A stretch of 33,695 nt of DNA from an uncultured Methanosarcinales archaeon (GCA_964372795.1 CAYJSO010000001.1:2993-36687); one strand, 5' to 3'; numbered from the stretch's first letter, positions 3,001-6,000 are shown. Program-made: the numbers.

Positions 3001-6000
3001 GTTATTGTAGATGACTTAGGAATCCTAACAATTTACTCAATCGTTTTATTCTTATTTATCTGGGGCTCCCAGAAGATAATGAGCAAGCACTATCTGCACC
3101 ATATAATGTACAAGCACCATAAGAAAAAGCATGAAGAGATGCAGAAAAGAGAAAAAGGGCATTTTGAGAAGAAAACAACGGTAAAACAAGTCCAGAAAGA
3201 AGCAGCAACGCAAACAAAGCAGAAGAAAGTCCTCTTCAGGATATAACCTTATAAGCCGCATAAATCATAAAAGCTTATTTATAAATATTTAAATAAAGAT
3301 TTAAATGAGAAAGCTCTCTTTAGCCTTAAATGACAATAATAATTGTAACAGGCACCCCCGGAACCGGAAAAACATTTATAGCTAAACTGATAGCAAAAGA
3401 ACTTAACTCTAAATATGTAGATGTAAACAAAATTATCGACGAGAAAAAGCTCTGTGATGAATACGATGAAGTGAGAAAATGCAGGATAGTTGATGCTGAT
3501 AAATTAAATAATGCCCTAATTGATTTAATTAAAAAAAGTAAAGAAAAAAGCAAAGAAAATCTAGTTATCGATTCCCACATGTCGCACTATCTTCCTAAAA
3601 AATATGTTGATCTCTGCATCGTCACAAAATGCAGTTTAAAAATATTAAAAGAACGCCTGGACAAAAGAAACTATCAAGAAGAAAAAGTGCGCGAAAACCT
3701 GGATGCAGAAATCTTTGACAACTGCCTCGTTCAAGCAGAAGAAAACAGCCACAACATTTTAATTGTTGACACGACCAGCCGCATACATAAAGAAGAATTA
3801 ATGAAACAAATAAAAGCAAAATTAAAACTAACCTAACAACAAAACTAAAAACAAAATTAACAACAAAATTAACAACAAAAAAATGCAAATATCAAAACCA
3901 GAACTCTCTGCAATCGAACTTAAAGCAATCGTAACAGAACTGCAAATACTAGTAGGCGCAAGAATAAACCAGATATTCCAGATTAAAAATGAATTCTTCA
4001 TCCAGCTTCACAAAAAAGAAAAATTCTTGTTAAGAATAGAGCCAGGCAAACTAATTTACTTAACCAAACACAAGCCAGAGATGGAAGAGCCAAGCAGCTT
4101 CTGCATGCAGCTGAGAAAGCATTTAAACGGACAAACAATTTTAGCAGTAGAACAGATAAACGCCCAAAGAATAGTCAAAATCTCATTTAAACAACACGCT
4201 TTATAAGTATAATTATTTTCAAAAGGCAAAATAATTCTAGTATACGATAAAATCACAATAATTGCCATACTCCAAAGACAAAGCTGGCAATCCCGTGATT
4301 TAAAGCCCCATATTGCCTACCAATTGCCCCCGATGGAGACTGATATGTTTTCAATAGATAATTCTTTATTCCATACTATTTTATCCAAAAGCAAAAAAGA
4401 CAAGATTGTTTCTTGCTTGGCTGCAGAGCTTGGCTTAGGCAGCTTATACGCAGAGCTCTTATGCTCAAACATAGACAAAAACAAAAGCCCAAAGCAATTT
4501 ACAGCAGACGAGAAAAGCAGACTTTATTCTTTCTTTTCCTTACTGAGAGAAAAAGTAAAAACTGAGCCAAAAGGCTACATTTACGATGACAATACAGTAT
4601 CTCCAATTAAAATACCAAATAAAAATTTAATAGAAGAACTATCTGCATTTGACGAAGCACTGGACAAAACGCTAAGCCTGACAAAATCTGAACGCTTGCA
4701 ATCAGAAAAAGAACTACTGTATCAACAGAAAATAAATGAACTTACGCGAATTCTAGAGCAGCAGGAAAAAACCCTATCAGAATTAACTAAAAAAATAGAA
4801 GAAGAAAGTGCAAAAGGTGAAATAATATACCACAACTATCAGCAAATAAAAGAGCTTTTAGATCAGATTAAAAAAATAAAAGTAATTGGCGGCTGGAGCG
4901 CAGTTAACGAATTTCTAAGCACTAAAAAAGAAATTAAAAATATAAACTTAAAAGATAAAAGCGTTAAGATAGAAATAAAATAAATAAGATAGAAATAAAA
5001 TAGAAACTAAAAAACAAATAAAAAAACAGAAACGAAAATGCTAACTCAAAAACAAATCAACATCTTTTCTTGCTTTGGAATACTCTTCAACATAACAGAC
5101 AGCATAACAACGCACTTGGCTTTAGCAGTTGGACTCACCGAAATAAACCCCCTTGCCGCTTACACAATTTCTAAAAATATTTGGCTATTTCATCTGATTA
5201 AAATAATTATAGGAACTTGGCTTTTTCTTCCAAGCAAATACGGCATGATTCACTTGCTTATATGCCAAAAAGATTGGAGGAAAATAGCGGGAATTTTTTT
5301 ATTAATATTTTTGACCTTATTTTTCCTTTACCTTACCATGAATAATATTATAAACATAATAATAAAGATACTAACTGCACCATAACCTTTATAAACCACC
5401 TTCTTCAAAACACCTGACAGGACGGCCATAGGGGGCTGGTCACACCCGATCCCGTACGATCTCGGAAGTTAAGAAGCCTTCCGTTCTGCAAAGTACTGTA
5501 TTACGCGGGAACCGTAGAAAGCTGTCCGCCTTCTTTATTTTAAAATTAGCCTTAATCTCACACTCACAAACACAACATTTTTAAACTCATACAGCTAAAA
5601 CCTCAATTAGGGTGGTTAAAATTAAATGTATTATACTCTGCGCAGGATACGCAACAAGGCTCTATCCTTTGACACAAAATCAGCCAAAGTCGTTGCTTGC
5701 AGTAGGTGACAAGCCAATTCTCGACTATATAATGGACCAAGTGGAACAGCTGGAAGACGTAACAGAGATTTTCATAGTGACAAATGACCGCTTCCTGCCG
5801 AACTTCTGGAGCTGGCGGGAAACATATTCCCCAAAGAAACGCACACATTTGTTCAGCGACGGAACAAAAAGCAATGAAGAAAGAATTGGTGCAATAGGAG
5901 ACTTGCATTTAGTAATAGAAAAGAAAAAAATTAACGAAGATCTTCTTGTAATAGCAGGCGACAATTTATTCGAGTTTGATTTAAAAAATCTAATCAGCCA

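Follow-up and report, generated by a model that had tools for sequence, protein, structure and literature searches.

A two-gene RqcH in a Woesearchaeota-type genome, with a pair of in-frame stop codons in its N-terminal half

The DNA analysed here ("the window"), a stretch of 33,695 nucleotides, comes from a metagenome-assembled genome (MAG; G000 in the coordinates below) of 946 kb in 136 contigs, 77.7% complete. It carries a gene that is the N-terminal half of a two-gene RqcH, of the NFACT/Rqc2/NEMF ribosome-rescue family, and in which the reading frame is interrupted by two TAA codons. The features at this locus, numbered as in the window, are:

3883-4983, stop 4984-4986, plus strand: reading frame of the rqcH N-half, with an ATG start at 3883
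3883-4203, plus strand: 5' piece of the N-half, 107 codons, first part of NFACT-N (ORF 3883-4206; Pfam NFACT_N positions 3-103 of 456, 68.8 bits)
4204-4206, plus strand: first of the two in-frame TAA codons, where aligned relatives have a hydrophobic residue (F, I, Y, L or T)
4210-4212, plus strand: second in-frame TAA, in place of a near-invariant Glu in the I-E-L-F-x-K-G-N strand
4213-4983, plus strand: 3' continuation in the same frame, 256 codons, with the remainder of NFACT-N, the HhH motif and the outward arm of the coiled coil
4984-4986, plus strand: native stop codon of the N-half and RqcH split point, the C-terminus aligning end to end with relatives
4208-4239, no strand: 12-nt inverted repeat with an 8-nt loop (arms 4208-4219 and 4228-4239; pair I5, 92% complementary), within the conserved block
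4955-5002, no strand: tandem duplication of about 20 nt over the last codons and the stop (repeat family D7), incidental and without shortening of the protein

Immediately upstream (3330-3836) is a gene for a 168-aa AAA_18 P-loop kinase, which we take to be Fap7/AK6-like. In a member of a different family of the order (G016; locus L055, G016:C38, 1-327), the N-half likewise has a homologous kinase gene as its immediate upstream neighbour, which points to a conserved pairing of the N-half with a ribosome-biogenesis-type kinase. The 46-nt spacer between the kinase gene and the ATG of the N-half (3832-3880) consists almost entirely of 12-nt tandem units resembling AAAATTAACAAC, in three copies with 76-92% identity; these may be candidates for a promoter or leader role. 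Downstream (5038-5385) is a gene for a 115-aa small membrane protein of the DUF5658 family (34.9 bits).

A preliminary description of this DNA had called attention to the two TAA codons, 6 nt apart, as the sole interruptions of a single frame, lying within the most conserved block of NFACT-N and each a single substitution away from a plausible sense codon; reading of the frame from 3883 to 4986 and alignment with homologues confirm all of this. A single GTA codon separates the two stops, and the 3' piece contains no additional stop or frameshift. Apart from the pair, 364 codons of the coding frame are clean, while the two non-coding frames over the gene contain 23 and 41 stops. The 5' piece aligns from residue 1 with the stand-alone N-halves of relatives; the 3' piece, searched alone against Pfam, gave no matches. 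The 367-aa read-through product, with X at the stops, gives a single Pfam NFACT_N match (about 3-374 of 456, 131.7 bits), and since this one match bridges both stops, the frame is continuous and the lesions are substitutions rather than frameshifts. A frameshift or indel origin is likewise ruled out by the fit of frame 0 to the family on both sides, with just three codons between.

Alignments with sets of 19, 8 and 59 homologues, and with human NEMF (to residues 2-151 of which the N-half can be aligned), place the stops in the core motif: the window has L-stop-V-stop-L-F-S-K-G-K where the family has L-I-I-E-L-F-S-K-G-N (with x at the Ser position in the list above) and NEMF has LIIELYDRGN. The second TAA is a single step from GAA, and the first from TAT, TAC or TTA. 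The occurrence of two nonsense hits within three codons, already remarked on as odd in the preliminary description, is indeed so: the clustering goes beyond chance, because two independent hits in this gene would fall no more than two codons apart with a probability of about 0.01. The earliest ATG, GTG or TTG past the second TAA is a TTG at 4324, 37 codons in, and therefore a re-initiated product would lack the conserved strand.

The inverted repeat at 4208-4239 spans both the second TAA and the codon of a further unusual residue, N116K. Its sole mismatch is the T at 4210 that makes the second stop: a G there would pair, and would give GAA. The N116K change (4230) improves the pairing; the second stop worsens the hairpin, because the repeat predicts G where T is present. 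A templated (quasi-palindrome) origin of the mutation is unsupported by this arrangement, and no donor copy of the motif was found elsewhere.

Against the NCBIfam model for archaeal RqcH (NF041120, RqcH_arch, 645 positions), the read-through product of the window gene covers positions 1-377 with 215.8 bits, and NFACT-N, HhH and coiled coil are present in that order. A typical NFACT/RqcH gene would have an uninterrupted frame, with NFACT-R in the same polypeptide; here the frame contains two TAA codons, and a search of the window with Pfam profiles found no encoded NFACT-R, which is on a separate gene. In RqcH, Rqc2 and NEMF, NFACT-N and HhH serve in tRNA binding and in C-terminal tailing on obstructed large subunits, and the D/E-R motif of NFACT-N supplies tRNA-binding residues in RqcH and Rqc2. 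In the window this motif (4165-4170, residues 95-96) keeps the invariant R96 and has Gln in place of the acidic residue that most relatives carry. The same Q-R occurs in the nearest relatives (G003, G005 and P0002-P0004), which are otherwise intact, and may represent an alteration of the tRNA-contacting pocket particular to this clade.

The partner gene is intact and lies on another contig, C19 (G000:C19:1124-1924). It encodes 266 aa, comprising the return arm of the coiled coil, NFACT-R and a C-terminal tail, with Pfam matches to NFACT_N 367-435 and to the whole of NFACT-R_1 (1-112, 122.5 bits). On NF041120 it covers 380-645 with 330.8 bits: together the two genes tile the model, and each alone falls below the 400-bit equivalog cut-off. 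Given this complementary coverage, the halves may reassemble into one functional factor. With a GC content of 0.40 (the genome mean is 0.39), C19 is typical of the bin and gives no sign of being a contaminant contig. Just ahead of the C-half is a gene for a 155-aa protein (G000:C19:660-1127) with a class-III-signal/pilin-like N-terminus (MQSKRGISPLIATVILITLAAALG...); its end and the C-half gene share 4 nt (ATGA), an arrangement that suggests translational coupling of the two.

The preliminary description had proposed that the gene has lost its C-terminal half, its ORF being cut short at an 18-nt direct repeat, and had recommended a genome search for a separate NFACT-R gene. That search is what yielded the gene on C19, and the proposed loss is contradicted by it as well as by the end of the window gene itself. 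The window protein ends in ...INLKDKSVKIEIK, at the same end point as relatives ending in ...INLKEKKIxVEI; the N-halves of the aligned relatives, matched end to end, are 360-378 aa long. There is a real repeat at the gene end, measured here as a tandem unit of about 20 nt (4955-4974 and 4975-4994, 80% identity), but it sits at and after the native stop.

The short architecture is in fact usual. In an even sample of 150 genomes from the order (87 families, all at least 95% complete), a stand-alone N-half was found in 141 and a stand-alone C-half in 147, the latter with frames of 165-479 aa, nearly all of 250-320 aa; a fused gene of about 640 aa was found in none of the 147 genomes with a C-half. 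In a set of 40 relatives from 33 families, the N-half frame measures about 370-390 aa and the C-half, which is unlinked to it, about 260-290 aa; the open frames of the N-half among relatives range over 340-420 aa. In two closed genomes (G024 and G033) the halves are 180-420 kb apart. The two-gene rqcH layout is the rule throughout the order, and because Woesearchaeota-type archaea normally carry RqcH as two genes, the back half that seemed to be missing is found intact at another place in the window genome. The view of the short architecture as decay fails with this result: the retention by relatives of the same short N-half was named in the preliminary description itself as an observation that would count against it. 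A short NFACT-N gene without NFACT-R in a DPANN genome is thus the normal half of a two-gene RqcH and not a sign of decay, and annotation or decay calls on such genes should look for a partner elsewhere in the genome.

The stops are another matter. Of the 142 sampled genomes that gave an N-half match, the window genome alone has internal stops, so that of the recent gene decay proposed earlier, the part concerning the stops retains its footing as an event unique to this genome, while the part concerning the short architecture describes the native two-gene layout. Other apparent interruptions among the sampled N-halves have simple explanations: terminal stops overrun by the profile alignment in G028 and G036, a scaffold gap of Ns in G016, and contig ends in G131 and G019. 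Recoding of TAA is excluded because TAA is the commonest terminator in the window genome, ending 461 of 889 long frames; in addition, no tRNA with a UUA anticodon was found among the 12 tRNA genes detected there. This tRNA count, obtained with ARAGORN with introns allowed and including one doubtful "Pyl (cta)", is far below expectation for a 946-kb genome that is 78% complete, and might be explained by masked stretches, by tRNA genes that are split or rich in introns, or by losses during binning.

Other assemblies containing the window sequence were searched for and none were found: the 212-aa fragment from the window is a singleton cluster, with its nearest homologue 49-51% identical, and a DNA pattern with exact flanks and free stop positions had no matches in metagenome and genome contig collections. 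A crude genome-wide scan for genes interrupted in the same frame gave four candidates without a nearby start. In the three that were tested, no Pfam domain spanned the stop (in one of them, a DDE transposase, the match ends ahead of it); the fourth (C105), outside the domain test, is an apparent low-complexity non-coding shadow. The assembly is therefore not generally error-ridden, since no other domain spanning a stop was found by the scan. The genome contains a DDE_Tnp_1 transposase gene at G000:C128:378-1632 (minus strand, 44.7 bits).

Signs of changed selection on the N-half are mixed. Comparison of 60 sequences at a near-invariant set of 21 columns (at least 95% conserved in the 59 relatives) shows the window N-half deviating at five: G46E, E110stop, N116K, G187S and E192L. 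This is the highest count of the 60 (the next highest is three and the median zero); one of the changes, G46E, is also present in an intact relative. This modest excess of changes at otherwise invariant residues is a hint of relaxed constraint on the N-half. Overall identity is 43.7% between the window N-half and that of G005, against 42.4% between those of G003 and G005, and a relative-rate check of the N-half versus NFACT-R in 15 genomes found no acceleration in the window genome. The NFACT-R of the window genome keeps all invariant and near-invariant columns and is 82% identical to that of G005, consistent with a C-half that is still strongly conserved.

On the consensus of one MAG, the reading that we prefer, with a probability of roughly 0.55, is that the N-half has undergone a real, recent and lineage-specific inactivation, through a pair of nonsense substitutions that lie 6 nt apart and hit the core beta-strand of NFACT-N. 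The pair would probably have arisen in one clustered multi-nucleotide mutation, or by a second hit after the first. The event would be recent, given the lack of frameshifts and of further stops and the ordinary level of overall divergence. Translation would stop after 107 residues, and a functional NFACT-N would be impossible, because the next usable start, 37 codons on, bypasses the conserved strand. By analogy with RqcH/Rqc2 biochemistry, the cell or population would be unable to bring tRNA to obstructed 50S subunits and so to carry out C-terminal tailing, and production of the NFACT-R half would continue. The loss of ribosome quality control (RQC) tailing that the preliminary description attributed to the lineage is possible in this form, confined to the window genome or population at most.

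A less likely explanation, but one carrying real weight, is that the N-half is truly intact and the TAA pair is an assembly or population artefact: a consensus error, a chimeric strain join or a minority allele. The sequence is known from a single assembly and MAG consensus, and two substitutions 4-6 nt apart in a gene whose other 364 codons are clean and free of frameshifts have the look of a local event; the clustering probability of about 0.01 fits a local artefact equally as well as a single clustered mutation. Normal divergence of the N-half and strong constraint on the C-half are also what would be expected if the system were in use. Paired substitutions are nevertheless rare among short-read consensus errors, and here both must create stops; moreover, the crude genome-wide scan turned up no further gene in which a domain crosses an in-frame stop, and among 60 homologues it is the window N-half that departs most often at near-invariant residues, all of which speaks for inactivation over artefact. 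That a functional protein might be expressed despite the stops, by a ribosomal hop from TTA to TTA, by read-through of both UAA codons, or as two working fragments, is very improbable. Identical Leu TTA codons (4201-4203 and 4213-4215) do flank TAA-GTA-TAA, with a stop directly after the take-off codon, a layout formally like that of known short ribosomal hops (bypassing); the 256 downstream codons are open, and gene fission is tolerated in this lineage. A hop, however, would remove four residues of the core strand, including the near-invariant Glu, where no relative is gapped; UAA is the main terminator, and read-through of two in a row would be negligible; working fragments would face the lack of a start for 37 codons, leaving the LFSKGKIIL strand untranslated, and a break within the domain rather than in a surface loop. 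The stop pair is also absent from the other 141 genomes with an N-half. Least credible of all, and in fact refuted, is the full version of the original proposal, with the whole NFACT gene decaying, NFACT-R deleted at the 18-nt repeat and RQC lost from the lineage: the window does lack NFACT-R and has a tandem repeat at the 3' end of the gene, but the C-half on C19 is intact with a strong NFACT-R match, the short N-half ends at the same residues across the order, and the repeat lies at and beyond the native stop.

If the N-half has been inactivated, its fate may be part of a wider pattern. In the same sample of 150 genomes, six have a C-half without a detectable N-half (G018, G087, G091, G118, G150 and G156), and a search with a broader profile (E <= 0.01) recovered none in these; no genome has an N-half only, and three have neither (G057, G074 and G151). 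This 6:0 asymmetry is suggestive of dispensability of the N-half. It could also stem from lower detectability of the N-half or from gaps in the assemblies: in the genus to which two of the C-only genomes belong, the other members carry the N-half. A bolder and rather doubtful model is that the halves have had independent fates since fission, the N-half being dispensable and repeatedly lost in Woesearchaeota-type archaea and the C-half kept under strong selection for a separate role on obstructed 50S subunits, with the window representing the act of loss caught in progress. If the stops are real, nature has knocked out the tailing half of RqcH in this genome and left the NFACT-R half in place, which, together with the asymmetry, hints that the C-half may work by itself; confirmation would help to show which parts of archaeal ribosome quality control a minimal genome cannot do without. 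The nonsense pair itself, if real, is an ordinary type of event in a known system, and a modest lead on the fates of half-genes.

In domain content and order (NFACT-N, HhH, coiled-coil hairpin, NFACT-R), the present RqcH matches the single-chain proteins of the NF041120 model, Bacillus subtilis RqcH (PDB 7AS8 and 7AQC), yeast Rqc2 and human NEMF (PDB 3J92). It differs from these in being made as two polypeptides, cut close to the tip of the coiled coil, and in the interruption of its N-half by stops; the Q-R of the window genome and its nearest relatives is a further difference from the D/E-R of single-chain RqcH and Rqc2.

Another parallel is the split gene NEQ438/NEQ506 of Nanoarchaeum equitans, an entry that we take to belong to the NFACT/RqcH family (COG1293). 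Podar et al. (2013; PMC3655853, Table 1) list it as a split "predicted RNA-binding protein" of Nanoarchaeota, NEQ438 + NEQ506 in N. equitans and Nst176 + Nst251 in Nst1, with the split at the "same site". As tabulated there, that case likewise involves two unlinked genes of a small-genome DPANN archaeon whose products jointly form a single protein, and the split is retained across lineages. The present case is in Woesearchaeota-type genomes and has an N-half with two nonsense codons. A literature search found no paper on a split NFACT in Woesearchaeota by that name, the Nanoarchaeota split being listed under the older one. The rqcH split is ancestral and, if that entry is indeed NFACT, was already tabulated for Nanoarchaeota in 2013.

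The stops themselves are most like those of an ordinary nonsense pseudogene in a reduced genome, with which they share their in-frame position in a conserved domain, their restriction to one genome and the absence of a compensating start. The window gene differs from such a pseudogene in that its stops are clustered within three codons, the remainder is undamaged, and its partner gene is fully conserved.
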